From NCBI GenBank assembly GCA_965237475.1, contig OZ250140.1:2597877-2661876 (forward strand): a DNA stretch of 64,000 bases, written 5' to 3'. Origin of the DNA: Dehalococcoidia bacterium (GTDB taxonomy: Bacteria > Chloroflexota > Dehalococcoidia > Bin125). Below the pieces are notes generated by a model. The model searched no databases, had not been told where the DNA came from, and saw only the letters and a program-made list of their open reading frames with translations. This document shows, piece by piece, positions 25,339 to 44,058 of this stretch; the first letter of the stretch is position 1, and every line of letters begins with the position of its first letter. The translations under genes were made by a program, and so were the position numbers.

Positions 25339-26835
25339 TCACTCAACCTTGTATTCGACGCGATATGTCCCGTCCCCAGCGCACCCAATCTGGTTTTCAA
25401 CAAGCCACTGCGCATTTTCCTCCGCCACCGTTCTTGCCGGAGCAGGTCCCAGCACGAACGGACTCAACCCCGTCACGCAAGTGACGGTCGCGACCCATCC
25501 CGGCTGTTCGCTTGTTGCCCTGACCCCTGACTGACCACCTGTATGGCCCGATCTCGCCGCTGGAATGTTCACTCTCCAATCAAAGGCCACGGTCGCCCAA
25601 ATGCCGTAGGCATGTCCGTTCCGGAGTATAAACCGAGTGTTCAGAAACTCGGGCGCGTCTTTGGCATATATGCGCCAAACCATGTTTGCGACATCATACC
25701 ACACTGCATGACTGATCCTGTCCTCGTTATCGATCGCAATGTCGACCCGCGTCGCGAAACCGGGCCATATTATGTCGGTCAGTTCTCCTGCCTCCAAGCT
25801 GATTGTGGTAGTCTGGATGGAGATGACGACGGGGGTAACGGGCGCTCTCGGCGTTCCATACGCAGGATTACTTGGCCCGCCATGAACCGGGCCGCGAACG
25901 ACACGCAGTTCGATCACGTATTCCTGATCATTGGTCAGAGTCTCGATATCGAAGGTCTCTGCTTGTAGGTTAGGCAAGTCCATCTCCCGCCAATCCCCGC
26001 CATCGAGCCGATGTTGGTACCTGTCGCCCCTCCGCACTATTAGTGGCTTTTCCCAAGTGATACGCAGGCTCTCGTTCGTGGCCGTCGCCTGTAGCGCGGT
26101 TGGTTTTTTGGGAACGCCGTAATAGGCTACGAGAAAATCGGTCAAGTCGGTGTCCGTCAGGCGCGGCAGATTGCCCCCGGCAGTTACCGTGCAAGCATCG
26201 GTGATGGTATCGGTGTTCATCAGGGCGACGTGGTCCAGCTCCAAGTTTCCGCCGGGATCGTGGACAACCGGTGTGTACCCGCAATGATAATGCGACAAGC
26301 CCAGGACGTGCCCCAACTCATGGCCAAGGTCACGAACTAACTGACGATTGGTAGCGCTATCAGTGCTGGGTGTGTAATAGCTGGCAACGACATGAATGAA
26401 GGCCTTGCGCGTATACGTCTGCAGAGTCGGGTTGTAATGTGTGTGTTGTGCGCACAGCAGACCTGCCGCGGAACACGGGTTGATCGCAGGTCTTGACACC
26501 TCGACACTTGCAAGCTTGTCAGTGGATTCGGCGGTGCATTCGTCTCTATCGCTTTGGAAGACGAACAGGGGGGCATCGGTGTACGCTGCAGTCGCATCGT
26601 TCCAGATCCTGATGGCCTCCTCGGTCGCCAGGGGAAAGCCTGCGGAACAAGTGGGGATGCTCTCTGCGAGTTCGACGTTTCTGACTGTAATACTCGGGTG
26701 CAAGAGATAGGGACTTCGGTGTTCGTCTGTGTGACCCGACTTCGTGGTGGTGGCGTCGAGCAGGATTCCCAGCGCGAGCATCAGTAGGATTAGGGCCACT
26801 GCTTTCGCACTTGCGATGTGGTGGCGGGGTGTCAT
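25339..26835 (-). CDS. Secreted zinc metalloprotease of the metzincin clan (HELGHVLGLSH) with a C-terminal FN3/Ig-like region
   Basis: HExxHxxGxxH motif; N-terminal signal/TM; start overlaps the stop of 26832..28895 by 4 bp, so the two are probably co-transcribed. Confidence 0.7.
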   Translation of the reverse strand: MTPRHHIASAKAVALILLMLALGILLDATTTKSGHTDEHRSPYLLHPSITVRNVELAESIPTCSAGFPLATEEAIRIWNDATAAYTDAPLFVFQSDRDECTAESTDKLASVEVSRPAINPCSAAGLLCAQHTHYNPTLQTYTRKAFIHVVASYYTPSTDSATNRQLVRDLGHELGHVLGLSHYHCGYTPVVHDPGGNLELDHVALMNTDTITDACTVTAGGNLPRLTDTDLTDFLVAYYGVPKKPTALQATATNESLRITWEKPLIVRRGDRYQHRLDGGDWREMDLPNLQAETFDIETLTNDQEYVIELRVVRGPVHGGPSNPAYGTPRAPVTPVVISIQTTTISLEAGELTDIIWPGFATRVDIAIDNEDRISHAVWYDVANMVWRIYAKDAPEFLNTRFILRNGHAYGIWATVAFDWRVNIPAARSGHTGGQSGVRATSEQPGWVATVTCVTGLSPFVLGPAPARTVAEENAQWLVENQIGCAGDGTYRVEYKVE

Positions 26836-28895
26836 GGCGTTTGGCCTTCGACGCTCGCGGATGCGGCAATGTAGTCGAACACATCCTCGATAGTCACGCC
26901 GTCAGCAGTCCGGGCGTTGGACCCTATATGCCTGGAAGATACTGTTCCGTCCCCGATTTCGAGGCAGAGAAAAGCTTCATCGGCGGTAGCGGCCAAGCAG
27001 AGGGACATTCCGTTGTAGTTGACGATCGTTCCGCCCCACTCAAGGTGATGAGCGGTAGTAGGAATAGAGAAGGCCAGGTGCGGATTTCCACCTGGTCTGG
27101 TCGAGAATTGATAGCGTCCCGGTGCGAATGGTAGGCCGCTGAGGGCATCGTCCACGGGCGCCGGTGCGGTAGGCGAAGGGGGATTGGTGACCGTGAAGCG
27201 AAGGGTAACGACAATGTCGCCGAGTTGCGGTTTTAGTCCGGGCCGGAGCGGCGGCTTCGCCGCTCGGAGGTCGAAGGTGAGTTCCGATGCCGCGCCTTCA
27301 AATTCAGTCGGCGTGAAGGTGTAGGTCGTGCCGACTGGAGGGATCAGTCGCTCGTAGGTGGTGGGCGAGGGACGCGCGAGGGGCGTCCGTTGCAGGTAGA
27401 AGCGGGTGTAGCCCGCCGGCAGCCGGGCGGCCGTCACGACGGTGACCTGCTGACCGCGCTCGACCTGGTAGCGGCCGTTTGAGTCGGGCTGGATGAGGAG
27501 CGAGTCGGGGATGTCCTGGACCTGGGCGTAGTCGTCCGGGGCGCCTTTGTAGACGGCGCGGATGCAGTCTGCATCGGTCGCCGTGGCGCAGCGGTCCGTT
27601 GGCAGCGGCGTGAATGCCGCTGTGACGGTCTTGTCGGGGTACATCTCCAGGACGCAGGTGGTGGCCGTGCCGGCGCAGTCGCCGCCCCAGCCCCCGAAGC
27701 TGTGCGTCGCATCGTTCCAGCTCGCCGTCAACGTCACTTCGGAGTCTTCTTCGTGGGTGGTCGCGCCGGCCGGGTCGACGCTGCCGCCGGCCCCTGCGGT
27801 GGCGGTCAGGGTGTAGGTCGGCAGCGGGGTCTCGGGCGTCGCCGGTGCGTCCGCGGCGCAGTCGGGCAGGTTCAAGTGCCCCAGGTCATTGGTCCGCACC
27901 CGCCGCAAGCGCGGCGGCACGCAGCCGCTGATCCCGCTGTTGCCCTTCACATACAGCCGGCTCAACTCACGCAAGTTCGTCAACTGCTGCGGCAGCGAAC
28001 CCGTCAAGCGGTTGTGCTCCAGGCGCAGATTGTCGAGTTGCGTCAGGTTGCCCAACTGGGTCGGAAGCGGACCCGAGAGCTGGTTGCGCGCCAGATGCAG
28101 CCAGCTCAGGTTCACGAGCCGGCCCAGGCGCGTCGGGATCGAGCCGGTCAGCCGATTGCCGTCCAGGTAGAGGTCCGCGAGGCCGGTGAGGTTGCCCAGC
28201 TGCGGCGGGATCGAACCGGTCAGCCCGACCCCCTCCGGCAGCGGCCGCGGTCCGCTCAGGATCAGGTCGGTCAGCTGCGGGCCGATCGCGCCCAGCTCGG
28301 GCGGGATCGGGCCGGTCAGCCGGTTGCCGGCGAGGTTGAGATCGGTCAGCCGGGTGAGCTGTCCCAGTTCCGCCGGGATCGAACCGGTGAGCCGGTTGCG
28401 CCAGGCCAACTGCAACTCAGTCAGCCCGGTCAGCCCGCCCAAGGCGGGCGGGATCGTGCCGTCAATGCCCGCCCGATCCAGGTTCAGCACCGTCACTCGC
28501 TGGACGCCGTCCACCGTGCCGACCGTGATGCCGGTCCACTGATTGAGCTGGCGCTCGGCGCTCCAGTTGAGCGTGGCCGTGCCGCGCAATGTGTCCTTGG
28601 CCGCCAGCAGCACGGCGCAGTCTGCGACCAGGTCGGGGTTGTCGGTTGGGCTCGGTACGACGGTGCCGTTCGCGCAGGGCTCCGTCGCCGACGCGGGCTG
28701 GGGGCCAAGGCCCGAGGTCAGGAGGATCGTCGCCACGAGCGCAGCGATCATCAGGAGGAGCGCCGTGGAGGCCGCGTAGCGCTTCCAGCTGGGGGTCGCT
28801 GCCTGTCCGCCTGCGTCCTCGGCGCGCCGCGCCCTCGTCAGCCGGGCGCGCAGCGCCGCCAAGCCAGCCAGAATCGCGCGCGTGACTTCAGACAT
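26832..28895 (-). CDS. Secreted LRR + InlB-B-repeat-like + DRC-domain protein; its N-terminal ~420 aa are a near-copy of the giant protein's N-terminus
   Basis: Nucleotide segment 27820-28900 is roughly 90% identical to 17000-18080; C-terminal ...DVFDYIAASASVEGQTP. Confidence 0.75.
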   Translation of the reverse strand: MSEVTRAILAGLAALRARLTRARRAEDAGGQAATPSWKRYAASTALLLMIAALVATILLTSGLGPQPASATEPCANGTVVPSPTDNPDLVADCAVLLAAKDTLRGTATLNWSAERQLNQWTGITVGTVDGVQRVTVLNLDRAGIDGTIPPALGGLTGLTELQLAWRNRLTGSIPAELGQLTRLTDLNLAGNRLTGPIPPELGAIGPQLTDLILSGPRPLPEGVGLTGSIPPQLGNLTGLADLYLDGNRLTGSIPTRLGRLVNLSWLHLARNQLSGPLPTQLGNLTQLDNLRLEHNRLTGSLPQQLTNLRELSRLYVKGNSGISGCVPPRLRRVRTNDLGHLNLPDCAADAPATPETPLPTYTLTATAGAGGSVDPAGATTHEEDSEVTLTASWNDATHSFGGWGGDCAGTATTCVLEMYPDKTVTAAFTPLPTDRCATATDADCIRAVYKGAPDDYAQVQDIPDSLLIQPDSNGRYQVERGQQVTVVTAARLPAGYTRFYLQRTPLARPSPTTYERLIPPVGTTYTFTPTEFEGAASELTFDLRAAKPPLRPGLKPQLGDIVVTLRFTVTNPPSPTAPAPVDDALSGLPFAPGRYQFSTRPGGNPHLAFSIPTTAHHLEWGGTIVNYNGMSLCLAATADEAFLCLEIGDGTVSSRHIGSNARTADGVTIEDVFDYIAASASVEGQTP

Positions 28896-28948
28896 CGCTC
28901 CACCTCTCACCGCACTACGCTGCCCCGACCTCGGGAGGGGAGCCTAGC

Positions 28949-30268
28949 ATGGCGGGACCGCTTGATGGCGTTCGGGTGCTTGAACTTGGGCAGATCATTG
29001 CGGGGCCGTATGCGGCCACTGCGCTGGCCGACCTTGGCGCCGAGGTGGTCAAGCTGGAGCCGCCGGGGGGCGAGGGCGGGCGCCGGCTGGGGCAGTTCGC
29101 GCCCGGCGAGAGCAAGGCCTTCCACAGCCTGAGCCGCGGCAAGCGCGGGATCGTCGTGGACCTGCGCAAGCCGCGCGGACGCGAGGTCGTCCAGCGCCTG
29201 ATTGCCGATTTCGATGTCTTCGTGACGAACGCGCGGCCCGGCGTGCCGGAACGGATCGGCGTCGACTACGAGACGTTGCGGGGCTACCGCTCCGACCTGA
29301 TCTACCTGCACATCACCGGCTTCGGGGACCCCAACCAGGTCCCGGCGGGGGCGCTCGACGCGCGGCGGCTGCAGGAGATCACGCAGCGCGCGGGCTCGGA
29401 CGTGATCGTGCAGGCGTACTCCGGCCTGCTGGCGGCCGACGAGAAGGTCGACCGGCACGGCGCGCCAGAGCCAATCACTGCGACGGCCCCAGCCGACTGG
29501 GTGGCGGCGTTCGGGGGCGCGATGGGGGTGTGCGCGGCGCTCTTTCACCGCCAACGCAGCGGCGAGGGGCAATACCTGACCACCTCGCTGTTGGCCGCGG
29601 CGCTGACGCTGCAGGCGCCCTGGCTCGCCTCGGTGCCGCCGTCGGACGCGTTTCTGGTGCAGCCGCTGCTCGACCGCTTCGCCGAGCTGCGCGACGCGGG
29701 CGCCAGCTACGCCGAGCTGATCGAGGCTCGCCGCGAGGCGCCGCGCCAGACCCGCGCCTTCCGGCTCTACTACGGCGGCTATTCCGTGAGCGATGGCGCG
29801 ATCATCCTCGGCGCGTTGACGCCGGCCAACCGCAACCAGATCAGGCGGGCGCTGGGGATCACCGACGACCCGACCGAGAGCGACGATTTCAACGCGATCG
29901 CGCCCGAGTCGGGCCCGATCGTCGATGGCGTGCGGCGGCAGATCGCCGAGCGGATGCTGAGCGCCACGATGGAAGAATGGATGCAGCGCTTCGACGCCGA
30001 GGGTGCGCCGGCGTCGATCGTGCGCCTGCCCGAGGAGATCAACCTCGACCCCGAGCTCGACGCGATGGGTCTGCTGCGCCCGATCGAGCACGCGCTCAGC
30101 GGCCCCGAGCGCCACGTCGGTCCGCTGGTGAATATGTCGGCCACGCCGACGGGCACGGATCGCCCGTCGCCGCCACTCGACGCGCACACCGACGAAGTGC
30201 TGCGGGAGCACCACTTCAGCGAGGAAGAGATCGCGGCCCTTCGAGGCGAGGGCGCCATCGGTGTCTGA
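28949..30268 (+). CDS. Family III CoA-transferase (CaiB/BaiF family)
   Basis: VLELGQIIAGPYAATALADLGAEVVKLEPPGG N-terminal signature. Confidence 0.75.
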   Translation: MAGPLDGVRVLELGQIIAGPYAATALADLGAEVVKLEPPGGEGGRRLGQFAPGESKAFHSLSRGKRGIVVDLRKPRGREVVQRLIADFDVFVTNARPGVPERIGVDYETLRGYRSDLIYLHITGFGDPNQVPAGALDARRLQEITQRAGSDVIVQAYSGLLAADEKVDRHGAPEPITATAPADWVAAFGGAMGVCAALFHRQRSGEGQYLTTSLLAAALTLQAPWLASVPPSDAFLVQPLLDRFAELRDAGASYAELIEARREAPRQTRAFRLYYGGYSVSDGAIILGALTPANRNQIRRALGITDDPTESDDFNAIAPESGPIVDGVRRQIAERMLSATMEEWMQRFDAEGAPASIVRLPEEINLDPELDAMGLLRPIEHALSGPERHVGPLVNMSATPTGTDRPSPPLDAHTDEVLREHHFSEEEIAALRGEGAIGV

Positions 30269-30508: not shown

Positions 30509-31447
30509 ATGCGAGGTGTTGGCGTCATCGAATTCGGCGGTCCGGAGGCTCTGCAGGTCGTTGAGCTACCGGAGGTCCACGCGGGGCCGGGCGAGCTGCG
30601 GCTGCGCGTCCACGCGGCGACCGTCAACCCGACTGACACGTTCGTGCGCGGCGGCGGGCGCGCGGAGGCGCTGCGGAAGGACCCGCCGCCCTACATCCCG
30701 GGCATGGACGCGGCCGGCGTGATCGACGAGATCGGGCCCGACACCGAGACCGGCCTCGCGATCGGCGACGCGGTGATGGCGATGGTGATACCGAGCGGCA
30801 GCCACGGCGCGTACCGCGAGAGCATCGTGCTGTCGGCCGACGCCGTCGCCCGCGCGCCGGCCGGCGCCTCGCACGCCGAGGCCTCGACGTTGCCGATGAA
30901 CGGTCTCACGGCGCGGCTGTCGCTGGATCAGCTGGCGTTGCAGCCGGGCCAGACGATCGCCGTGACGGGTGCGGCGGGCTGCTACGGCGGCTACATGGTC
31001 CAGCTCGCCAAGGCCGATGGTCTGCGCGTGATCGCAGACGCGTCAGCCAGCGACGAACAGTTGGTGCGTGACCTGGGCGCCGACATCGTGGTGCCGCGCG
31101 GCGACGACATCTCCGAGCAGATCAGGAAGGTCGCGCCGGACGGGGTTGACGCGCTGGCCGACGGCGCGGTGCAGAACGAACTCGCGGTTGGCGCGATTCG
31201 CGACGGCGGGCAGTTCGCCAGCGTTCGCGGCTGGCGCGGGAACGGCGAGCGCGAGATCACGTTCCACGTGACGTTGGTCTTCAGCTACGACCATCGCGCC
31301 GACCTGATCGACGAGCTGCGCCGGCAGACCGAGGCCGGGCTGGTGACGATGCGGGTCGCAGCGACGTATCCGCCGGAGGAGGCGGCCGAGACGCATCGCA
31401 GGATGAAGGCGGGCGGCACGCGGGGCCGGTGCGTGATCACGTTCTAG
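30509..31447 (+). CDS. Zn-independent MDR-superfamily oxidoreductase (NADPH:quinone reductase-like)
   Basis: GGPEALQVVELPEVHAGPGELRLRVHAATVNPTD ... TGAAGCYGGYMVQLAK. Confidence 0.65.
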   Translation: MRGVGVIEFGGPEALQVVELPEVHAGPGELRLRVHAATVNPTDTFVRGGGRAEALRKDPPPYIPGMDAAGVIDEIGPDTETGLAIGDAVMAMVIPSGSHGAYRESIVLSADAVARAPAGASHAEASTLPMNGLTARLSLDQLALQPGQTIAVTGAAGCYGGYMVQLAKADGLRVIADASASDEQLVRDLGADIVVPRGDDISEQIRKVAPDGVDALADGAVQNELAVGAIRDGGQFASVRGWRGNGEREITFHVTLVFSYDHRADLIDELRRQTEAGLVTMRVAATYPPEEAAETHRRMKAGGTRGRCVITF

Positions 31448-33900
31448 CGTTCGGCCGTCGGCGGAGGCTCCGTGCGCGCTGAAGCGGCGATGTAATCGAA
31501 GACGTCGGAGATAGTCACTGAGGCATCCGTCAGGGATCTACCAGGGATGGCACGGTATACCTCCCCGCCGTCTGCCTGGGCGAGACAGAGTGTGGAGGTC
31601 TCTGCCAGATCGGCGAGGCAGAATGAAATGCCACCCGGATCCGAGAGGATGATCTCTTGCCATTTGATCTGGTGGTCGGTCGTCGGGATCTGAATGATCA
31701 ACGGTCGCTGTTCCGACCGCAACGCTGGGAATTGATATGTGCCGGGTGGTAGAGCCTCGGCATTGTAGGCAGAAAGAGGAACTTCCACCGGAATGGCCGC
31801 GGGTGGCGGTGTCAGAACGTCGAACGTGGTCGTCACGACGACGTCGCCGAGTTCGGGCTTGATGCCGGGCCGCTGCACGGGCAGCGGGCGGGCGGCGGTG
31901 AGATCGAATGTGAGGACGCTGGCGCCGCCCTCGAAGGCGATCGAAGTAAACGTGTAGGTCGTCCCTACCGGTTGGATCAGCTGTTCATGGGAGGTCGGCG
32001 AGGGCCGCACCTGGGGGCGGCGCTGGAGGTAGAAGCGGGTGTAGCCGGCGGGCAGGGGGGCGGCTGTGACGACGGTGATCTGCTGGCCGCGCTCGACCTG
32101 GTAGCGGCCGTTTGAGTCGGGCTGGATGAGGAGCGAGTCGGGGATGTCCTGGACCTGGGGGTGATCGTCAGGAGCGCCTTTGTAGACTGCGCGGATGCAG
32201 TCGGCAGCCGTCGGCGTCGTGCAGCGGTCCGCCGGCAGCGGCGTGTACGACGCCGTCACCGTTTTGTTGGCGTACATCTCCAGCACGCAGGTTGTGGCCG
32301 TGCCGCTGCAGTCGCCGTCCCAGCGGGCGAAGGTGTGGGTGGCATCGTCCCAGCTCGCCGTCAGCGTGACCGGCTCTCCCTGAACGTGCGTGGTGATACC
32401 GGTGGGTTCGACGCTGCCGCCTTCACCCGCAGTTATGGTCAACTGAGCTCGCGGCTCGAATAGGCTTCGGGCGATCGCGATGAGGCGATCGACATTGCTC
32501 CCGGTAAGGCTCGTGTTCTCTCCCCGGATCTCATACGTGGCGTCGCTCGCGGAGTCGTAGACCCAGACCGTGACCGGGAACAGGTCGTCGTAGCTTGGAC
32601 CGGGCGGGCTATAGATCACCGTCGCTGGCCGCCCGGCGACGACACGTGTCTCGCGGACTCCGCGACCGTTCCGCCAGGATGCCAGTCTGGGCTCACGCCG
32701 GTGTGCGGTGTCGTAGCCGGAGATGGCGACATCGCTTTCGCCGCCCTGATACTTGGCGTTGTAGCCATAGACCGGATCCGAGACGTCGCCGCTGCGCGCC
32801 CAGTCAAGCGTCGCACCCTCAGCTAGCGTCGGGTCCCGCCAGTATGGCAGCCGGCGCGCCTCATCGATGTCGCTCGTGCCGGTCGGCTGCGAGTAGGAAT
32901 ACCCTGCAGGCTCGCGTGTGAGGGGTTCCTCGACTGCACCGGTCCAGTCTTCGGGAACGATCTGGAAGGGACCATGGATCACTGGCGCCGTAAGGCTCGC
33001 CCCGCCGACGTCGGGCAGGTCGCCCCAGGCGAAGCTGGCATCGGCGCTACCCGCGATCGGGCCGCTGCAACCGCTGAACGCATAGGTCATCCACTCAACT
33101 GTCAGCAGCTTGCGCGGCTCTGCACCTTCCGGGTCGGGCTTGACCTCGGTCACGGTATAGCGCACCCAGCAGTCGTCGGCCGTGCGCCATTCGAAAAGGT
33201 CGTCTGCTTCGATCGAATCGAACAGAGTTGCCTGCGATGCTCCGTGCGTGTCGGACTTGTGGATCAGCAGTCCGGTCGTGGCGCCGTCGCGCAGGCCTTC
33301 GTAGGTGCTGACGGCGCTGGTCGTGTCGGCCGGGTCGGAGAGGAAGGCGTAGCTGCCCGCCGTCGCCACTGCGCCCGTCATGTCGTAGCTGGTGTAATGC
33401 AGAGTCGTCGTGTCGACCTGGAACTTAGTCGTCACGACTACATCCCCGAGCTCCGGCTTCTGTCCCGGTCGCGGGAACGGCCGCGGCCGGGCGGCGGTTA
33501 GGTCGAAGCTGAGCAGGGTGGAGCCGCGCTCATCGGTGGTGACGGTGAAGGTGTAGGTCGTGCCGACCGGTGGGATCAGCTGTGCAGCCGAGGTGGGACT
33601 GACGGTGACCTGCAGCGGGCGGCGCTGGAGGAAGAAGCGGGTGTAGTCGGCGGGTAGCTGAGCGGCGGTCACGACGGTGATCTGCTGGCCGCGCTCGACC
33701 TGGTAGCGGCCGTCCGGGTCGGGGGCCAGGAGCATCTCGGCGGGAATGTCCGTAATCTTTGTGTAGTCGTGCGGGGCGCCTTTGTAGACGGCGCGGATGC
33801 AGTCGGCGTCGGTGGGCGTCGCGCAGCGGTCCGCGGGCTGCGCCGTAAGCAACATGATCACGGCGAACCACAGGATGGCAATGAGTCGCGAGTAGGTCAT
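31444..33900 (-). CDS. Secreted protein with two DRC domains and one InlB-B-repeat-like domain (818 aa)
   Basis: Signal peptide MTYSRLIAILWFAVIMLLTAQPADRC; DRC domain at the N-terminus and again after the B-repeat; C-terminal ...DVFDYIAASARTE. Confidence 0.7.
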   Translation of the reverse strand: MTYSRLIAILWFAVIMLLTAQPADRCATPTDADCIRAVYKGAPHDYTKITDIPAEMLLAPDPDGRYQVERGQQITVVTAAQLPADYTRFFLQRRPLQVTVSPTSAAQLIPPVGTTYTFTVTTDERGSTLLSFDLTAARPRPFPRPGQKPELGDVVVTTKFQVDTTTLHYTSYDMTGAVATAGSYAFLSDPADTTSAVSTYEGLRDGATTGLLIHKSDTHGASQATLFDSIEADDLFEWRTADDCWVRYTVTEVKPDPEGAEPRKLLTVEWMTYAFSGCSGPIAGSADASFAWGDLPDVGGASLTAPVIHGPFQIVPEDWTGAVEEPLTREPAGYSYSQPTGTSDIDEARRLPYWRDPTLAEGATLDWARSGDVSDPVYGYNAKYQGGESDVAISGYDTAHRREPRLASWRNGRGVRETRVVAGRPATVIYSPPGPSYDDLFPVTVWVYDSASDATYEIRGENTSLTGSNVDRLIAIARSLFEPRAQLTITAGEGGSVEPTGITTHVQGEPVTLTASWDDATHTFARWDGDCSGTATTCVLEMYANKTVTASYTPLPADRCTTPTAADCIRAVYKGAPDDHPQVQDIPDSLLIQPDSNGRYQVERGQQITVVTAAPLPAGYTRFYLQRRPQVRPSPTSHEQLIQPVGTTYTFTSIAFEGGASVLTFDLTAARPLPVQRPGIKPELGDVVVTTTFDVLTPPPAAIPVEVPLSAYNAEALPPGTYQFPALRSEQRPLIIQIPTTDHQIKWQEIILSDPGGISFCLADLAETSTLCLAQADGGEVYRAIPGRSLTDASVTISDVFDYIAASARTEPPPTAER

Positions 33901-33912
33901 GTGCGCGAGTCC

Positions 33913-35115
33913 TTATTTGACATTCCGGATCGATGCCATGATCTGATCGAACAGGAGATCGGCCTCGGGCGACTTGGCGAAGCGGCCGAACTCCTCGCCG
34001 GTCCCCGGATTGATGTGGAGCGCCGAGCCGGTTCGCGGCTCGTTCAGCGCAATCCCACGGGATGGGAGGTGGGGGCGGGCTGGGTCACGTTCCATCTCGT
34101 ACAAACCGACGAGAACGATCAAGCTGCCGGCAGGTACGTCGATCACGTATCGCACGCCCGGGTAGAGGCGATAGGTTCCTTTCCCGGCCGGCTCGCCAGG
34201 CAGCAGCAGCTGTACGCCATCTGGAGCAGGAACCCCGTGTGGGACCCGCCAGACGAAGTAGACATCCTTGGCCGCGCCGGGATCTGTGACCAGGCCACCG
34301 CAGCTCCCGCCGTAGCGGTTGACGTTCTCGAGGCCGAAGGTGCGCGTGCTCGCCGCCGCCGCGATGCTCGCGACCTTGAAGCGGAACCCGCAATCGAGGC
34401 CGTTCGTGCGATAGTCGAAGCTGTGACCGATCTGCACCGTGTCGTAGAAGTCGGCGCGGGATGCCCCATTCGCGTCCGTCGGGTGAATGCGTAACTCCAC
34501 GCTCACTTGTGCGGAAGAGCCATAGTTGCCGATCGCGCTTGCTGCATCCCCGGCAGTTTTGAGGAAGGCGTAGCTGCCGGGGGTGGCCGGTGCGCCGGTG
34601 ATGTCGAGCGTGTCGTAGCGCAGGGTCGGGACCAGGAAATTGGTCGTGACCACGACATCGCCGAGTTCGGGCTTCTGTCCCGGTCGCGGTAGCGGTCGCG
34701 GTCGAGCCTCCGTGAGGTTGAAGGTGATCAGGTTTGAACCAGCCTCATTTGCGGCCACAGTGAAGGTGTAGGTCGTGCCGACCGGTTGAATGAGCTGCTC
34801 GAATGAGGTCGGACTGACGGTGACCTGCAGCGGTTGGCGCTGGAGGTAGAAGCGGGTGTAGTCGGCGGGCAGCGGGGCGGCGGTGACGACGGTGATCTGC
34901 TGGCCGCGCTCGACCTGGTAGCGGCCGTCGTCGTCGGGCTGGATGAGGAGCGAGTCGGGGATGTCCTGGACCTGGGCGTAGTCGTCCGGGGCGCCTTTGT
35001 AGACGGCGCGGATGCAGTCGGCGTCGGTCGGCGTCGTGCAGCGGTCGGCCGGCAGCGACGTGAAGAACATGATCACAGCGAAGCACACGGTGGCGACGAG
35101 TCGCGAGTAGGTCAT
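33913..35115 (-). CDS. Secreted DRC-domain protein with a conserved ~250-aa C-terminal domain (400 aa)
   Basis: MTYSRLVATVCFAVIMFF...ADRCTTPTDADCIRAVYKGAPDDY; C-terminal ...LFDQIMASIRNVK; 12-bp gap to the downstream paralog. Confidence 0.7.
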   Translation of the reverse strand: MTYSRLVATVCFAVIMFFTSLPADRCTTPTDADCIRAVYKGAPDDYAQVQDIPDSLLIQPDDDGRYQVERGQQITVVTAAPLPADYTRFYLQRQPLQVTVSPTSFEQLIQPVGTTYTFTVAANEAGSNLITFNLTEARPRPLPRPGQKPELGDVVVTTNFLVPTLRYDTLDITGAPATPGSYAFLKTAGDAASAIGNYGSSAQVSVELRIHPTDANGASRADFYDTVQIGHSFDYRTNGLDCGFRFKVASIAAAASTRTFGLENVNRYGGSCGGLVTDPGAAKDVYFVWRVPHGVPAPDGVQLLLPGEPAGKGTYRLYPGVRYVIDVPAGSLIVLVGLYEMERDPARPHLPSRGIALNEPRTGSALHINPGTGEEFGRFAKSPEADLLFDQIMASIRNVK

Positions 35116-35128
35116 CGTTGTTGAGTGT

Positions 35129-36430
35129 CTAGTTCACCGTGCGGATCGACGCCATGATCTGATCGAACAAGGCTCCCGCTGCGGACGACGTGATGTAGCG
35201 GTAAACCTCTGTGCAGGCGTCCGGATCGATGTGCAGCGACGAGTCGTTCGCCTCGTTGAGGAGAACGGCGGTTGCATGCGGAAGGTCGGGGTTGTCAGGG
35301 TCTGGTTCTGACTCGGCGATCGAGCCATAAACGATCACACTGCCGGCGGGTACGGCGATGGTGCACGGCACTCCATCGTCGATGCGGTATGTTCCCTCGC
35401 CGACCGGCTCGCCGTAGAGCAGGACCCGGACGCCCCCCGGAGCCTCGAGTCCAGGGCGGACCCGCCACGCGAAGTCCACTGGCTTTGCCGCGCCAGGATC
35501 ATCAACGAATTCACCGCACGACCCGCCGTAGTCGGCTACGTCTGCAATGCCGAACGTTCTGGGACTCGCCGCCTCGCCGACGCTGGTCACCTTGAAGCGG
35601 AACCCGCAACGGAGACCATTCGTCCGGTAGTCAAAGACGTCACCGACCTGCACCGTGTCGAAGAAGGCCGCGCGCGATGTCCCGCTCGCGTCCGTTAGGT
35701 GGACGCGCAGTTCGACGCTTCCGTAGGCGGATGCACTGAAGTTGCCAATGGCGCTTGCTGCATCCCCGGCCGTCTTGAGGAATGCGTAGCTGCCGGGGGT
35801 GGCCGCGGCGCCGGTGATGTCGAGCGTGTCGTAGCGGAACTTCGTGGTCTCGATATAGAAGACCGCGCTGACGACCGTATCCCCGAGTTGCGGCTTCAGA
35901 CCGGGCTGTGGCGGCGGCTTGGCTGCCGTCAGGTCGAACGCGATCAGAATGGAGCCCTCGAAGTCGGTGGTGAGCGTGAACGTGTAGGTCGTACCCAGCG
36001 GCGGGATCAGCCGCATGTCCGTTGTCGGTGGGCGGCCCGTCACCGGACGGACTTGCAGGTCGAAGCGGGTGTAGCCGGCGGGCAGCGGGGCGGCCGTCAC
36101 GACGGTGATCTGCTGGCCGCGCTCGACCTGGTAGCGGCCGTCGTCGCCGGGCTGGATGAGGAGCGAGTCGGGGATGTCCGGGACCTGGGTGTAGTCGTCC
36201 GGGGCGCCGCGGTAGACGGCGCGGATGCAAGTGGGGTCGGTCGGTGTCGTGCAACGGTCCGGCGGCATCGGGGTGACCGGGGTGTCCGCCGCATCGCGGG
36301 CCGAGTCCTGCGAAGTCTGCTGCGCTACGGAGGTGGGCTGCGGGGCGGCGTTGGAGGTCAGGAGGATCGTGGCCGCCACGGCGGCGGCCAGCACGAACGT
36401 GGCGGCGAGGGCTGCGTAGCGCATCGGCAT
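35129..36430 (-). CDS. Secreted DRC-domain protein, paralog (433 aa)
   Basis: Signal anchor MRYAALAATFVLAAAVAATILL; DRC domain; C-terminal ...LFDQIMASIRTVN. Confidence 0.7.
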   Translation of the reverse strand: MPMRYAALAATFVLAAAVAATILLTSNAAPQPTSVAQQTSQDSARDAADTPVTPMPPDRCTTPTDPTCIRAVYRGAPDDYTQVPDIPDSLLIQPGDDGRYQVERGQQITVVTAAPLPAGYTRFDLQVRPVTGRPPTTDMRLIPPLGTTYTFTLTTDFEGSILIAFDLTAAKPPPQPGLKPQLGDTVVSAVFYIETTKFRYDTLDITGAAATPGSYAFLKTAGDAASAIGNFSASAYGSVELRVHLTDASGTSRAAFFDTVQVGDVFDYRTNGLRCGFRFKVTSVGEAASPRTFGIADVADYGGSCGEFVDDPGAAKPVDFAWRVRPGLEAPGGVRVLLYGEPVGEGTYRIDDGVPCTIAVPAGSVIVYGSIAESEPDPDNPDLPHATAVLLNEANDSSLHIDPDACTEVYRYITSSAAGALFDQIMASIRTVN

Positions 36431-36448
36431 CAGGGTCTCCTCACCGCG

Positions 36449-36613
36449 ACGGTTCAGCCTGCGGCGGGACGCGACGGGCGGCGACTGTTGCGGTCACCTG
36501 GTCGGCCTCGACGGTTGTGGGGCCTGGCATGCCGAGCGGGGTCAGCGCCGTAATCAGCATGACTACCACGAAGCACAAGACGGCGACGGATCGGGAGTAG
36601 GTCATGGTGAGTG
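36449..36613 (-). pseudogene. 54-aa N-terminal (signal-peptide) fragment of a further DRC-family paralog
   Basis: Translation MTYSRSVAVLCFVVVMLITALTPLGMPGPTT... matches the MTYSRLVATVCFAVIMFF N-termini and then terminates. Confidence 0.5.
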
Positions 36614-36614
36614 C

Positions 36615-37919
36615 TTACTGCCGACGGATCGATGCGATGAGCTGTTCGAACAGTGTGCTCGGATGCGTCCCGATGATGTAGATTTGGCCCGTATGCCCGT
36701 TCGAGGGATCGATGTGGATCACGGAGCCCGTATCGACGTCTTCCAGCACCAGGGTGCTCGTTGGTTGGTCAGGCCGGTTTACGTCCGGTTCGTTGATAGC
36801 GACCCCGTGGTATATGATTCTCATGCCAGCAGGAACGTCGATCACCCACCGCCAGTATGTGTCAATTCGATAGGTTCCCTGACCGACAGGCTCGCCGTTG
36901 AGCAACACGCGCACTCCGTCTGCACCAAGGACGCCAGGCCGCACGCGCCAGATGAACTCGACCGGCTTAGCGGCGCCGGGGTCGTCGATGAAGCTGCCAC
37001 ACCCCCCGCCGTAAGAGCCTGCGTCTTCAATGCCGAACGTCCTCGGACCCGTCGTTGTCCCGATGCTCGTTACGTTGAAGCGGAACCCGCAATCGAAGCC
37101 GTTCGTCCGGTAGTCGAACGCGTCACCGACTTGGACGATGTCGTAGAAGTCCGCGCGCGAGGCCCCGCCCGCATCGGTTGGGTGGACGCGCAACTCGACG
37201 CTTCGGAGGGCGGAAACGCTGAAGTTGCCGATCGCGGTCGATGCGTCGCCGGCGGTCTTGAGGAAGGCGTAGCTGCCGGGGGTGGCCGCGGCGCCGGTGA
37301 TGTCGAGCGTGTCGTAGCGCAGGGTCGGGACCAGGAACTCGGTCGTGACCACAACATCGCCGAGTTCGGGCTTCTGTCCCGGTCGCGGTAGCGGGCGCGG
37401 TCGAGCCTCCGTCAGGTTGAAGGTGATCAGGTTTGAACCAGCCTCATTTGCGGCCACAGTGAAGGTGTAGGTCGTGCCGACCGGTTGAATGAGCTGCTCG
37501 AATGAGGTCGGACTAACGGTGACCTGCAGCGGTTGGCGCTGGAGGTAGAAGCGGGTGTAGTCGGCGGGCAGCGGGGCGGCGGTGACGACGGTGATCTGCT
37601 GGCCGCGCTCGACCTGGTAGCGGCCGTCGTCGTCGGGCTGGATGAGGAGCGAGTCGGGGATGTCCTGGACCTGGGCGTAGTCGCCTGGGGCGCCTTTGTA
37701 GACGGCGAGGACGCAAGTGGGGTCGGTCGGTGTCGTGCAGCGGTCCGGCGGCTGCGGCTTGGCCGGAGTGGCGGGCGCGTCGCGGGACGAGTCCTGCGAA
37801 GTCTGCTGCGCTACGGAGGCGGGCTGCGGGGCGGCATCGGAGGTCAGGAGGATCGTGGCCGCCACGGCGGCGGCGAGCACGAACGTGGCGGCGAGGGCTG
37901 CGTAGCGCATCCGCATCAA
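36615..37919 (-). CDS. Secreted DRC-domain protein, paralog (434 aa)
   Basis: MRYAALAATFVLAAAVAATILL; DRC domain; C-terminal ...LFEQLIASIRRQ. Confidence 0.7.
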   Translation of the reverse strand: MMRMRYAALAATFVLAAAVAATILLTSDAAPQPASVAQQTSQDSSRDAPATPAKPQPPDRCTTPTDPTCVLAVYKGAPGDYAQVQDIPDSLLIQPDDDGRYQVERGQQITVVTAAPLPADYTRFYLQRQPLQVTVSPTSFEQLIQPVGTTYTFTVAANEAGSNLITFNLTEARPRPLPRPGQKPELGDVVVTTEFLVPTLRYDTLDITGAAATPGSYAFLKTAGDASTAIGNFSVSALRSVELRVHPTDAGGASRADFYDIVQVGDAFDYRTNGFDCGFRFNVTSIGTTTGPRTFGIEDAGSYGGGCGSFIDDPGAAKPVEFIWRVRPGVLGADGVRVLLNGEPVGQGTYRIDTYWRWVIDVPAGMRIIYHGVAINEPDVNRPDQPTSTLVLEDVDTGSVIHIDPSNGHTGQIYIIGTHPSTLFEQLIASIRRQ

Positions 37920-38152: not shown

Positions 38153-39463
38153 ATGATCGGGGGCGATATGCCGGGTCCACTGCACGGGATTTCGGTGCTG
38201 GAGGTTTCGCAGATCATCGCGGGGCCGATGTGCGGGGTGCTTCTGTCGGATATGGGCGCCGATGTGGTGAAGGTGGAAGCGCCCGGCGGCGAGGCGCTGC
38301 GGGTGGTTGGGCAGTTCGCCCCGAACGAGAGCAAGGTCTTCCACGTCTTCAATCGGGGCAAGCGCGGGATCGTGCTGAACCTCGCCGACGAGCAGGGCCG
38401 CGCCGTGGCGCATCGGCTGGTGCGCGACTTCGATGTGTTCCTGATCAATGCGCGGCCGGGCGTGCCGGCGCGGCTGGGCCTGGACTACGAGACGATCCGT
38501 GAGCAGCAGCCGAACATCATCTACCTCGACAACACTGCGTATGGACCGGAGGGCCCGAGCGCCCATCGCGCCGGCGCCGACATCATTGCGCAGGCCTACT
38601 CGGGCCTGATGGCGGCCGACGAGAAGGTCGACGCAAACGGCGACCCGGTGCTGATCACGGCGACGACCCCGGCCGACTTCGGCGCGGCCTTCACCAGCGC
38701 AATCGGCGTCTGCGCGGCGCTGTTTCACCGCGAGCGCACGGGCGAGGGACAACGCATCCAGACGTCGCTGCTGGGCGCGGCGCTGACGCTGCAGAACACA
38801 GGCAACGCGCGGCTGCCGGCGTCGGACGCGATCCTGCTCGACCCGTCCCTGGACGCGGTCGCCGAAGTGCGTGCACGGGGTGGCACGTGGCCCGAGTTGC
38901 TCGCTGCCCGTTCTGGTACGCGCGCGCTGGTCGGAGGAGCGTTTCTGCTGTACTACGGCGGTTACCAGACGCGCGACGGCGCGATCATGCTGGGCGCACT
39001 GACGCCCAACAATCAGCGGCAGATTCGCGACGCGATCGGCCTGGACCACGATCCGAGCAGCGAGCCCGACTTCAATCCGCTGGCGGAGGATTCGGAAGCG
39101 ATCGTTGACGGCGTGCGTGAGCGGATCAGCGCGATTTTTCGCAGCGACACCACGGCGCACTGGATCGAGCGGCTCGACGCCACCGGCGCGCCCGCCTCGC
39201 AGGTCAATCTGCCCGAGGACATGGTCCACGATCCGCAGGTTCAGGCGCTGGGCATCATGGTCGAGCTGGAGCATCCGCTGACCGGGCCGGAGACGATGGC
39301 CGGCCCGTCGTGGTCGATGTCGGCCACGCCACTGGAGGCACAGGGAGCGTCGCCGATGCTGGACCAAGACACAGACAACGTTTTGGCCGAACATGGTTTC
39401 AGCGCCGAAGAGATCGCTGCGCTGCGGGCCAGCGGGGCGATCGGCGCAGCAGCGCCGGAGTAG
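38153..39463 (+). CDS. Family III CoA-transferase (CaiB/BaiF), paralog of 28949..30268
   Basis: ISVLEVSQIIAGPMCGVLLSDMGADVVKVEAPGG. Confidence 0.75.
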   Translation: MIGGDMPGPLHGISVLEVSQIIAGPMCGVLLSDMGADVVKVEAPGGEALRVVGQFAPNESKVFHVFNRGKRGIVLNLADEQGRAVAHRLVRDFDVFLINARPGVPARLGLDYETIREQQPNIIYLDNTAYGPEGPSAHRAGADIIAQAYSGLMAADEKVDANGDPVLITATTPADFGAAFTSAIGVCAALFHRERTGEGQRIQTSLLGAALTLQNTGNARLPASDAILLDPSLDAVAEVRARGGTWPELLAARSGTRALVGGAFLLYYGGYQTRDGAIMLGALTPNNQRQIRDAIGLDHDPSSEPDFNPLAEDSEAIVDGVRERISAIFRSDTTAHWIERLDATGAPASQVNLPEDMVHDPQVQALGIMVELEHPLTGPETMAGPSWSMSATPLEAQGASPMLDQDTDNVLAEHGFSAEEIAALRASGAIGAAAPE

Positions 39464-40638: not shown

Positions 40639-40753
40639 GCGCGCTCTGGGCGCGCGGCGGCGGGCGACCGCCTGTCTAGACTGCGGCCAACAGACCGGTC
40701 GGCGCGTCTCACGGGAACCATGCCCGATGCGGCGGCCGTTGAGGAGCAACGTG

Positions 40754-41236
40754 ATGAGCGACAACTTCGAGTACATCTCGCGCAACCGCCTCCAGTTTGA
40801 GGGCGGGATGCGACACGCGACGCTGGGCGACGTGCCCGAGCACGTTGTCTACGGCGTGCAGGGCGCGCTCAAGGAGTACTACGGGGTTCCGGCGGACGCG
40901 CCGCCGGTGGCCGCCACGCTTGACCACATCGTGGCCGCGGTCGGCGGTTGAATGTACGGCACTCTCGCGCGGGCGTTGTCCGTGCGCAAGGTCGAGTTCG
41001 ACCGCTCCGGCTTCACTGCTGACGTTCTGGGCACGATTCGCGGCGAGCGTAAAGAGACCATCCGGATCACCGACATCCACGTGGTCTTCCACATTCCCGG
41101 CGTCGTCGAGGAGCAGCGCGCGGCTGCCGAGCGCGCCGTCGAGTTCCACGCCGCCGGCTGTCCGGCGCACGAGAGCGTGAAGGCAGCGATCGAGATCACC
41201 TGGGAGGCCGACTGGGCCGACGCCCTGGCGCCGTGA
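40754..41236 (+). CDS. OsmC/Ohr-family peroxidase-like protein with an in-frame TGA (40949-40951) at the peroxidatic-cysteine position; candidate selenoprotein or pseudogene
   Basis: ...DHIVAAVGG[TGA]MYGTLARAL aligns with E. coli OsmC ...IGAAHAAC FSMALSL; the resolving Cys is retained in FHAAGCPAHESVKAAIEI (OsmC KAKAGCPVSQVLKAEITL). Confidence 0.45.
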
Positions 41237-41616
41237 CCCTGGCCGCGCCCGAGGGGTTGCTCTATTCCGACGACGACCTCTGGGTCGAAGCAGCGGGCGA
41301 TATCCGTCGCGTCGGCGTGACCGACTTCGCTCAGGACCAGCTGGGGGACATCGTCTATCTCGAACTGCCCGAGCCGGGCGTCGCGGTCGTCGCGGGTCGA
41401 GCCTTTGGCGTGATCGAGTCCGCCAAAGCGGTGATCGACCTGATTAGCCCCGTCACGGGAACGGTGCAGAGCCGGAACGACGCCGCCATCGCCGAGCCAA
41501 CCCTGGTCAACACCCACCCGTACACGGACGCCTGGCTGCTGACCGTGCGGCCGACCGATGCACTTGCAGCGGCACTCATGTCCGCCGCGACGTATCAGTC
41601 ACTCCGCGGCGACTGA
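41233..41616 (+). CDS. gcvH: Glycine-cleavage H-protein-like lipoyl carrier (GcvH family)
   Basis: VGVTDFAQDQLGDIVYLELPEPG...IESAKAVIDLISPVTGTV with the lipoyl-lysine motif. Confidence 0.7.
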   Translation: MTLAAPEGLLYSDDDLWVEAAGDIRRVGVTDFAQDQLGDIVYLELPEPGVAVVAGRAFGVIESAKAVIDLISPVTGTVQSRNDAAIAEPTLVNTHPYTDAWLLTVRPTDALAAALMSAATYQSLRGD

Positions 41617-41926
41617 GCCGGTCGCTTCCCGCTGAGTCGCCGGTCAGCGGCCTGCGCGACGCCCACACGACCGACTTGGGCAGAGGCGGGGGCTGCGATT
41701 GCGGCTCCGGGCGTTCCCGGTCCGCCAGCTCCCCCGTCGTCGCCGAGATGAACTCTTCCAGCTCCAGCGGTTTGCCGCCGATCGTGAAGCGCGCCGTCGG
41801 ACCGATCGGGTGTGACCGATCCTCCTCCTCCTCGTCCTCCTCCTCCTCCTCGGCCTCGATCTCTTCGTCGTCCTGTTGTTCGTCGGGCAGGTCGTCGGGC
41901 AGGTCGTCGGGCAGGTCGTCGGGCAT
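41576..41926 (-). CDS. Hypothetical acidic protein with an N-terminal (DDLP)3 repeat and a Glu-rich tract
   Basis: 116-aa ORF; overlaps the 3' end of gcvH on the opposite strand; no recognisable family. Confidence 0.3.
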   Translation of the reverse strand: MPDDLPDDLPDDLPDEQQDDEEIEAEEEEEDEEEEDRSHPIGPTARFTIGGKPLELEEFISATTGELADRERPEPQSQPPPLPKSVVWASRRPLTGDSAGSDRLSRRGVTDTSRRT

Positions 41927-42866: not shown

Positions 42867-44058
42867 TGGCAGGCTGCTGAAGAAGGGCCCCATGCACCGC
42901 GCTTCCCCGATCTTGGTGCGAGGAGTCACAACTCGACCAGCTCGGCGAGTGGATTCCCTAGTCTCACAGACGAACCGCGACAGATGATTGAGGTGAGGCC
43001 ATGGGAGCGCGCTACTCGCAGCTGGATCTGGAGGAGCGATGTGCGGTTGCCCGGTTACAGGCCGAGGGGCGCTCGGTCCGGCAGATCGCTGCAGCTCTGG
43101 ATCGCGCGCCATCGACGGTTGCTCGGGAGCTGAAACGCAACGCGGGGCGCGATGGCTACCGTCCGGGCTACGCCCAGGAGCAGGCCCGGGCGCGGCGCTG
43201 GCGCGGCTCGCGGCTGGAGCGCGACGCGGGCCTGCGCGAGCGGGTGCTGAGCGAGCTGGCGCGCGGGCTCTCGCCGCAGCAGGTCTCGGGCCGGCTGGCG
43301 CGCGAGGCCGGCCGGGCGGTGATCTCGCACGAGAGCATCTACCGCTTCATCTACGCCCAGATCTCACGCGCCAAGCCGAGCCGTCAGGGCGGTTGGCGCC
43401 ACTATCTGCCGCGGGCCAAGGCGAAGCGCGGCTGGCGCGGTCGCAAGGGCGGCAGCTCGGTTGACCACATTCAGCTGCGGCGGCCCTTGAGCGAGCGTCC
43501 GGCCGCCGCCGCCGACCGGCTCCAGGCCGGCCACTGGGAGGCCGACCTGATGCTCTTCGGACGCTCCGGTCCGGCCCTCTTGATGCTGCACGAGCGCCAC
43601 TCGCGGCTGCTGCTGGCGCTGCCGGTCGCGAGCAAGGCGGCGGCCCCGGTCGCGCGCCTGCTGGTCGCGCTGCTGCGCGGCTGGCCGCCGGCCCTGCGCC
43701 GCACGGTCAGCTTCGACAACGGCAACGAGTTCGCCCAGCACCGCGCGCTGCACCGGCTCGGGGTCGAGACGTTCTTCTGCGACGCCTACGCGCCCTGGCA
43801 GAAGGGCGGGATCGAGAACGCGATCGGCCGCCTGCGCCGGGTCCTGCCGCGCCGCCTCGAGCTCGCCCAACTCAGCATCGAACGGCTCGTGCAGGTGCTG
43901 CAGCTGTACAACAACACCCCGCGCAAGTGCCTCGACTACCTCACCCCGGCCGAAGTCTTCGGCCAGCAACTGGCGCACTTGCAATGTGAACCCACCTTCC
44001 CGCCTGCGCGGGAATGACGGAATTGGCGGGTTGCCCGACTTCTCCAGCAGCCTCCTAG
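42866..44058 (+). mobile_element. IS30-family insertion sequence (~1.19 kb) with imperfect terminal inverted repeats
   Basis: Left end GGCAGGCTGCTGAAGAAGGGCC (42869-42890) versus the reverse complement of the right end GCTAGGAGGCTGCTGGAGAAGTCG (44036-44059); single transposase ORF. Confidence 0.7.
43001..44017 (+). CDS. IS30-family DDE transposase
   Basis: N-terminal HTH (LDLEERCAVARLQAEGRSVRQIAAALDRAPSTVARELKRN); catalytic region with HWEADLM. Confidence 0.8.
   Translation: MGARYSQLDLEERCAVARLQAEGRSVRQIAAALDRAPSTVARELKRNAGRDGYRPGYAQEQARARRWRGSRLERDAGLRERVLSELARGLSPQQVSGRLAREAGRAVISHESIYRFIYAQISRAKPSRQGGWRHYLPRAKAKRGWRGRKGGSSVDHIQLRRPLSERPAAAADRLQAGHWEADLMLFGRSGPALLMLHERHSRLLLALPVASKAAAPVARLLVALLRGWPPALRRTVSFDNGNEFAQHRALHRLGVETFFCDAYAPWQKGGIENAIGRLRRVLPRRLELAQLSIERLVQVLQLYNNTPRKCLDYLTPAEVFGQQLAHLQCEPTFPPARE

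Follow-up and report, generated by a model that had tools for sequence, protein, structure and literature searches.

A predicted selenocysteine-containing OsmC/Ohr-superfamily peroxidase gene that overlaps gcvH in a Dehalococcoidia bacterium

Results

A single reading frame interrupted by one TGA

We analyzed a 64,000-nucleotide stretch of contig OZ250140.1 from a Dehalococcoidia bacterium (assembly GCA_965237475.1), referred to here as the window, in which positions 40754 to 41236 harbor a complete predicted selenoprotein gene of the OsmC/Ohr superfamily. Coordinates refer to the window and to its plus strand unless marked (-). The window sequence contains a single 160-codon frame that is interrupted once, by a TGA at 40949-40951. 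From an ATG at 40754, 65 sense codons lead to this TGA, which is followed by an ATG at 40952, 93 further sense codons, and, at 41234-41236, the terminal TGA. The internal TGA, codon 66, is the predicted selenocysteine (Sec) codon, and its residue, U66, occupies the peroxidatic position. A Shine-Dalgarno-like GAGGAG (40741-40746) is located 7 nucleotides (nt) upstream of the ATG at 40754; this start was picked by homology, as the motif M-x-x-F-x-Y-x-S opens every homolog. Gene callers split the gene into two halves, 40754-40951 (65 amino acids) and 40952-41236 (94 amino acids), which are deposited as separate unnamed proteins in NCBI/ENA. NCBI/ENA records of the related genes everywhere likewise consist of two fragments that are either unnamed or labeled "OsmC family" or "hypothetical."

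Within the window, which has a GC content of 67%, there are 11 in-frame TGAs with open frames on both sides that are rich in G or C at third codon positions. A TGA between open frames is thus by itself not unusual in this genome, and it is the two-sided homology together with the conservation described below that, at the level of sequence, makes the TGA at 40949-40951 real. TGA is also the terminator of 18 of the 43 predicted window genes, including the own end of the 40754-41236 gene. Since TGA is an ordinary stop in these genes, the code is not reassigned, and a genome-wide UGA reassignment was rejected.

Conservation of the TGA and cysteine counterparts

Relatives were obtained from a search of a set of 5.8 billion proteins, which returned 103 relatives, and from a GTDB scan with one genome per species, which returned 160, of which the best 80 were fetched (loci L001 to L080); all counts out of 80 rest on these. 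Nearly all relatives in the protein set were halves, namely, pieces of ~90 amino acids that start at MYGTL or N-terminal pieces that end in DHIVAAV(G/A)G, and no full-length NCBI selenoprotein entry was found among the 103 homologs. The codon before MYGT was TGA in all 80 species genomes fetched and in 8 further contigs, that is, in 88 of 88 related loci; among the 8 contigs, the window's own strain group carries the TGA in at least three independent assemblies. Across the 80 genomes the downstream half shares 53 to 100% protein identity, and the upstream frame encodes the same N-terminal domain, down to an identity of 53%. The taxa represented are mostly Dehalococcoidia metagenome-assembled genomes (MAGs), along with Ktedonobacteria (isolate brp13), other Chloroflexota, and a few Bacillota. 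In Ktedonobacteria bacterium brp13 (AP024096.1, L069), the sequence around Sec reads ...IVAAVAG-U-MYGTLAGALSGR.

The initial annotation of this locus had proposed that orthologs be aligned and inspected for Cys or Sec at this position. This comparison yielded TGA in the 88 related loci and Cys in more distant full-length homologs. An exhaustive search of 1.84 billion representatives revealed many homologs of 150 to 170 amino acids with 31 to 52% identity, all of which have Cys at the site of U66, within the motif ...TLDH-VAA-G-C-[ML]-x-G-T.... Cys-bearing homologs include P0105, P0109, P0110, P0113, P0124, P0144, P0158, and others, as well as P0002 (L089:27-515), which is the sole close Cys form (59% identity, TGT at the site) and is encoded on a 598-bp metagenomic contig. 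As far as can be judged from these alignments, Cys in the distant homologs reflects the usual Sec/Cys pairing and is no evidence against Sec. In the database translations of three further entries (P0043, P0137, and P0104), the Sec site is occupied by W (GVAGWMYG, GGWLTGT) or R (AGRMYGT), probably because the source pipeline rendered TGA as Trp or because these are point variants.

Family, fold, and predicted catalytic residues

The read-through product passes the OsmC model of Pfam (PF02566) with 37.6 bits (cutoff, 27.5; E = 3.1e-9) over residues 57 to 151. An hmmsearch of the PDB with the family profile aligned profile positions 58-148 with residues 52-139 of the OsmC structure 1qwi, a weak match (E = 0.11). 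The top matches of this search were TBP structures, which were rejected as spurious, and hhalign and Foldseek were therefore needed. For hhalign, a profile of 22 reconstructed members was compared with Escherichia coli OsmC, whose sequence has 143 amino acids, the same as PDB entry 1qwi. In E. coli OsmC, Cys59 is the peroxidatic cysteine and Cys125 the resolving one. The alignment pairs DHIVAAVGG-U66 with ELIGAAHAA-C59, GC136PAHE with GC125PVSQ, and D57 with Glu50, and its coordinates agree with those of the PDB hmmsearch. In this alignment U66 and C136 show the arrangement of a peroxidatic residue where the central helix starts and a resolving cysteine followed by proline, ~65 to 70 residues apart.

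A structure of the Cys homolog P0002 was modeled with AlphaFold2 from a fragment alignment, with a predicted local distance difference test score (pLDDT) of 65 and a predicted template modeling score (pTM) of 0.57. In a Foldseek search with this model, nearly all of the top 50 PDB matches were OsmC/Ohr proteins (1qwi, 1nye, 2onf, 6ebd); the best match was 1qwi, with an E value of 1.1e-4 and a template modeling score of about 0.5, a strength limited by the quality of the model. The Pfam, hhalign, and Foldseek results bear out the initial annotation, which had joined the two adjacent open reading frames (ORFs) into one OsmC-family protein read through the TGA, had placed this TGA exactly at the peroxidatic Cys, and had recognized the resolving Cys downstream. 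Judged by sequence comparison, 40754-41236 encodes an OsmC/Ohr-superfamily protein with a predicted Sec in place of the peroxidatic Cys.

Residues R20, D57, U66, and C136 and the motif CPAHESVK are invariant in the family alignment. Cys136 (codon TGT, 41159-41161) is the predicted resolving cysteine and forms part of the invariant G-C-P-A-H-E-S-V-K. Asp57 (codon GAC, 40922-40924), located 9 residues before Sec, is a candidate catalytic acid, and Asp is also present in the Cys homologs. Arg20 (codon CGA, 40811-40813) lies outside the hhalign match; its placement resembles that of Arg19 in Xylella Ohr (PMC5962072), which makes it a candidate for the catalytic Arg. Arg20 and Asp57 may thus both take part in catalysis. 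The N-terminal 55 residues are conserved and distinctive of the family (FEYISRNRL...VVYGVQG.L.EYYG).

A putative SECIS hairpin downstream of the UGA

Folding of the region 3' of the UGA revealed a GC-rich hairpin in every clade, with a stem register that shifts between clades. In the window, this putative bacterial Sec insertion sequence (SECIS) spans 40966-40986 (CGCGCGGGC-GUU-GUCCGUGCG) and is composed of a 9-bp stem, CGCGCGGGC/GUCCGUGCG, and the apical loop GUU (40975-40977), 23 nt after the UGA; its energy is -18 to -24 kcal/mol, depending on the context. The initial annotation had noted a stem-loop after the UGA and placed its start about 25 nt downstream: the stem-loop stands, but it begins 15 nt past the TGA.

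The apical loop begins 24 to 30 nt from the U of the UGA in 63 of 65 distinct sequences; 49 of the 65 have stems of 7 to 9 bp, and 47 have a G within the first two loop positions. When 81 sequences were folded in 36-nt segments, those at +3 to +18 had the lowest mean energy of the gene (-15 to -16.6 kcal/mol, versus -13.4 kcal/mol for the best segment elsewhere). Among 26 representatives with less than 85% identity, post-UGA segments held the global minimum in 8 cases, versus ~1.3 expected, and ranked among the top three in 14. Resampling of synonymous codons weakened the fold in 89% of the distinct sequences (z below 0), with a mean z of -1.5 and a z of -2.19 for the hairpin region of the window. 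No Rfam model applies, and an Rfam scan returned nothing at the gathering threshold or at E <= 10.

The per-codon synonymous identity over the main hairpin was 0.41 to 0.68 and thus not clearly raised, whereas it was raised at codons 2-3 and 13-17. At the latter (0.80 to 0.90), a second small hairpin, GGUCG-AGUU-CGACC (40990-41003), coincides with the codons for K-V-E-F-D. Its conservation is confined to the Dehalococcoidia clades; L057 to L080 lack it, as do the Ktedonobacteria and Bacillota members. It may be a SECIS extension, an independent element, or incidental. That the post-UGA hairpin is a SECIS of conserved presence is plausible, not proven, from these sequence analyses, and its statistical support is moderate.

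A tRNA-Sec gene next to one family member

ARAGORN detected no tRNA-Sec in the 64-kb window or in L001 to L078, and a tblastn search with E. coli SelD returned nothing in the window or in 89 loci. In L079, a Chloroflexia MAG, a tRNA-Sec with the anticodon UCA is located at 11916-12010 (-), 1.7 kb downstream of the family member (RF01852, 67.2 bits; threshold, 47). Its neighbors are genes for DAHP synthase, a HAD hydrolase, XdhC, PGK, and TIM, with no sel genes among them. In the OsmC gene of this locus, the N-terminal 30 codons are replaced, and the replacement contains a stop.

Linkage to gcvH and gene neighborhood

The OsmC gene is followed by gcvH (41233-41616), which encodes a lipoyl-carrier H protein of 127 amino acids and whose GTG start overlaps the OsmC stop by 4 nt (GTGA, 41233-41236). 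The H protein scores 107.8 bits with PF01597 and 125.2 bits with NF002270 (cutoff, 117), and with 114.9 bits it falls just under the cutoff of TIGR00527 (115.85). Its lipoyl-lysine, Lys65 (41425-41427), is found in the sequence motif E-S-A-K-A-V.

A gcvH gene lies within 10 kb of the OsmC gene in 19 of the 80 loci. It directly follows the OsmC gene in 12 of them, including L046, L048, and L052, which have no other synteny to the window. Other arrangements were also observed: the OsmC gene is immediately upstream of gcvT and gcvH in L047, L049, and L056, with gcvPA next in L047 and L056; in L057 the order is gcvT-H-PA-PB, a SnoaL-domain gene, and the OsmC gene; and gcvH is upstream of the OsmC gene by 0.8 kb in L051 and by 5 to 8 kb in L058 and L059. 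The largest Dehalococcoidia clade (L005 to L035) is without gcvH between the OsmC gene and ribD_C, the order aminotransferase-OsmC-ribD_C being otherwise kept, and gene order here indicates that gcvH was gained or lost at the exact OsmC/ribD_C junction. Clustering of the neighbors in divergent loci revealed no partner more consistent than gcvH/gcv. In a Joint Genome Institute metagenome contig (L087), a pyruvate dehydrogenase E1 gene at 10604-12838 (-) is convergent with the Sec-OsmC gene; pyruvate dehydrogenase is also lipoyl dependent, and this may be a coincidence.

An ORF at 41576-41926 (-), convergent with gcvH, encodes a low-complexity tail that is extremely acidic (PDDLPDDLPDDLPDEQQDDEEIEAEEEEEDEEEED). 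Gene callers also predict this ORF in related contigs, no family model matches it, and its length varies between 86 and 116 amino acids among strains. Between ribD_C and an NHL-repeat gene there is an IS30-like transposase gene (HTH_38; 43001-44017), an insertion that the window shares with L081 but that is missing from the corresponding place in L082 (OZ244584.1), which represents a strain-level polymorphism. The window also encodes a giant protein of 2,482 amino acids with leucine-rich repeat (LRR), fibronectin-III, and InlB B-repeat domains at 10690-18138 (-), near which three smaller LRR paralogs are located at 26832-28910 (-), 20463-21839 (-), and 22365-23696 (-). This content of LRR/InlB-type surface proteins is unusual for a Dehalococcoidia genome. 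An array at 31444-37919 (-) comprises a Flg_new_2 (InlB B-repeat) protein of 818 amino acids followed by three tandem ORFs (400, 433, and 434 amino acids) that have no Pfam match and are possibly paralogs; its copy number differs between strains (L081 versus L082). Several luciferase-like monooxygenases and family III CoA-transferases are encoded at 451-2654, 9497-10693, 28949-30268, and 38153-39463, and further genes encode an enoyl-CoA hydratase, SDRs, nitroreductases, and PhyH. We take this gene content to resemble that reported for marine SAR202-type Dehalococcoidia.

Discussion

We consider it highly probable that 40754-41236 encodes one 160-residue OsmC/Ohr peroxidase that contains Sec (U66) at the UGA under the direction of the hairpin and SelB and that undergoes a putative GcvH-reduced cycle. 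On the sequence evidence, the gene is very probably a genuine selenoprotein gene. We infer the incorporation of selenium, the recognition of the hairpin by SelB, the peroxidase activity and its substrate, and the role of GcvH as reductant.

Three other explanations of the TGA were weighed. The initial annotation had left room for a pseudogene or for a sequencing error in one assembly, with TGC or TGT read as TGA. The codons do differ by one base, and TGT is found at the site in one metagenomic contig (P0002/L089). However, the TGA is present in all 88 related loci, which come from different species and assemblies and include at least three independent samples of the own strain group, and purifying selection acts on the two halves, neither of which contains a further stop or a frameshift. 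These observations refute such an explanation, and its probability is negligible. Alternatively, the gene could be truly split, the UGA being a stop after which the adjacent AUG re-initiates translation, so that chains of 65 and 94 amino acids form an OsmC-like fold without a peroxidatic residue. In keeping with this, an ATG directly follows the TGA in 81 of 81 sequences, a GGCGG upstream might serve as a weak Shine-Dalgarno sequence, and gene callers annotate two ORFs everywhere. Yet the stop coincides exactly with the catalytic Cys codon of the Cys homologs, and since Met or Leu follows this Cys in the homologs as well (CMYGT, CMHGT, CLTGT), the Met is a feature of the protein and not a start signal. 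The invariance of the resolving Cys, Arg, and Asp would be hard to understand if no peroxidatic residue were present, initiation at the AUG would be impeded and not helped by the stable hairpin that covers this region, and a tRNA-Sec adjoins one family member (L079). We therefore regard a split gene as highly improbable.

A readout of the UGA as another amino acid also merits consideration, either Cys, by means of a SelB-like factor and a UGA-reading Cys-tRNA, or Trp or Cys through near-cognate read-through, which would give a thiol-based or an inactive OsmC. The inserted residue cannot be told from sequence alone, a few database entries (P0043, P0137, P0104) have W or R at the site, and the reference list of PMC5424206 points to work on natural variation among Sec recoding systems. 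On the other hand, the tRNA-Sec beside the L079 member has the canonical UCA anticodon, and the simplest account of the W entries is translation with a code in which TGA means Trp. The combination of a UGA in place of a redox Cys, Cys homologs, and a downstream hairpin is the standard Sec signature (PMC9312934). Furthermore, a richness in selenoproteins is reported for Dehalococcoidia MAGs, with 46 to 49 selenoproteins listed in BSepDB for those of the same naming series (PMC13326102); Sec use is known in Chloroflexi (PMC1794560), and an unusual form of tRNA-Sec in Chloroflexi has been described in the literature. Insertion of a residue other than Sec is highly improbable in our view.

Several observations weigh against the interpretation as a GcvH-linked selenoperoxidase. 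Regarding the hairpin, 18 of the 65 loops have no G in the first two positions, the hairpin of the window taken alone does not differ significantly from dinucleotide shuffles (z = -1.25; 22 of 200), and there is little clean covariation of the compensatory type. When 65 codon-aligned sequences were folded jointly with RNAalifold, no common structure emerged (3 pairs, -0.55 kcal/mol), because the stem register and the codons used differ between clades. The TGT form P0002 retains the same hairpin as the Ktedonobacteria Sec forms, so that Sec forms are not its only carriers; this suggests either that the switch from Sec to Cys was recent or that the hairpin lacks Sec specificity. As to the machinery, Pfam searches of ~40 window genes identified no sel genes (selA, selB, selD), and no selA, selB, selD, or tRNA-Sec was found in the Dehalococcoidia loci fetched. 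The structure model of P0002 is mediocre, as its pLDDT shows, and the candidate catalytic acid of the family is Asp and not Glu. Finally, gcvH is absent from the locus in 61 of the 80 genomes, including most Dehalococcoidia close to the window, and there is no dihydrolipoamide dehydrogenase (Lpd) gene in the window.

The reading of the gene as a selenoprotein gene has a precedent. The initial annotation stated that an OsmC-like selenoprotein family had been reported from metagenomes, and this is correct: such a family was described in 2005 from the Sargasso Sea metagenome by Zhang and Gladyshev (PMC1088965). Reviews of 2022 and 2026 assign OsmC-like selenoproteins to PF02566/COG1765 with the motif UxxT, and the NCBIfam model for them is NF041052, "OsmC-related (seleno)protein," with a cutoff of 95 bits. 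The window family shares with them the OsmC-superfamily fold, a UGA at the redox Cys near the start of the central helix, Cys homologs, and a stem-loop after the UGA. In contrast, the window protein scores only 17.7 bits with NF041052, and ten Cys relatives either score 12.6 to 27.2 bits or have no match. The window motif is U-M-Y-G-T (UxxxT, with Thr at +4) instead of UxxT, and the family differs further in its own N-terminal 55 residues, in having Chloroflexota as its main home, and in its linkage to gcvH. The window protein has no match at E <= 1 with TIGR03562 (OsmC; cutoff, 85.8) or TIGR03561 (Ohr; cutoff, 88.85), and its relatives peak at 29.2 and 23.6 bits, respectively, far below these cutoffs; the SACOL1771 subfamily model is failed as well. 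Since the NF041052, OsmC, Ohr, and SACOL1771 models are all failed, the family is, by these profile comparisons, a distinct, uncurated branch of the superfamily, similar in kind and presumably in mode of action to the OsmC-like selenoproteins already described.

Compared with E. coli OsmC (1qwi/1nye) and the Ohr proteins of Xylella and Chromobacterium, the two redox positions match (U66/C136 versus C59/C125). The predicted fold is also the same, an acidic residue likewise precedes the peroxidatic one by 9 positions, and, as far as its placement suggests, the conserved N-terminal Arg is shared. These organic hydroperoxide reductases are Cys based, whereas the family has a predicted Sec for Cys and Asp for Glu, with very low sequence similarity, and for the window protein the activity is a prediction.

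The mechanism that we propose would start with the insertion of Sec at the UGA (40949-40951) by SelB and Sec-tRNA(Sec), as directed by the hairpin at 40966-40986. The U66 selenolate, activated by Arg20 and Asp57, would attack an organic hydroperoxide or H2O2 and be converted to a selenenic acid, which Cys136 would resolve to form an intramolecular selenenylsulfide. This bond may then be reduced by the dihydrolipoyl arm of the co-transcribed GcvH (41233-41616), and GcvH in turn could be re-reduced by dihydrolipoamide dehydrogenase and NADH or by glycine cleavage itself. Ohr is reduced by lipoylated proteins (PMC5962072), and, according to two papers (PMC12440151 and PMC11316075) that cite Nyvltova et al. 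2016, the hydrogenosomal OsmC of Trichomonas vaginalis has as its partners the H and L proteins of a glycine decarboxylase complex that is incomplete. In view of these precedents and the gcvH linkage, a lipoyl-GcvH cycle appears most likely. As in the Trichomonas OsmC/H/L system so described, an OsmC-type peroxidase would be coupled to a lipoyl H protein, here in the form of a gene overlap and a recurrent gcv linkage, which by analogy suggests a selenoperoxidase reduced by lipoyl-GcvH. The Trichomonas system, in the accounts of the citing papers, is eukaryotic, Cys based, and shown biochemically, whereas that of the window is bacterial, Sec based, and deduced from gene order.

More tentatively, and with clear doubts on our part, the Sec-OsmC of Chloroflexota might catalyze the last step in a dedicated module for peroxide detoxification that is based on GcvH and depends on selenium and lipoyl groups, and it might constitute a distinct selenoprotein subfamily. 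In such a module, hydroperoxides could serve as an electron sink that re-oxidizes the H protein. If this is true, the GcvH module would be the first bacterial, selenium-based counterpart of Trichomonas OsmC/H/L.

These data change no concept; both OsmC-like selenoproteins and lipoyl-dependent Ohr/OsmC systems were known before. With a family model in which Sec is permitted, the split records could be mended and the selenoproteomes of Dehalococcoidia and Ktedonobacteria enlarged, and the natural Sec/Cys pair would permit the gain from selenium in this fold to be measured. The physiological reductant of bacterial OsmC-type peroxidases is poorly defined, and the linkage to gcvH and gcvT-H-P offers lipoyl-GcvH as a candidate. 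The main value of the finding thus lies in the correction of the annotation of many Chloroflexota genomes and in the hypothesis that GcvH is the reductant.

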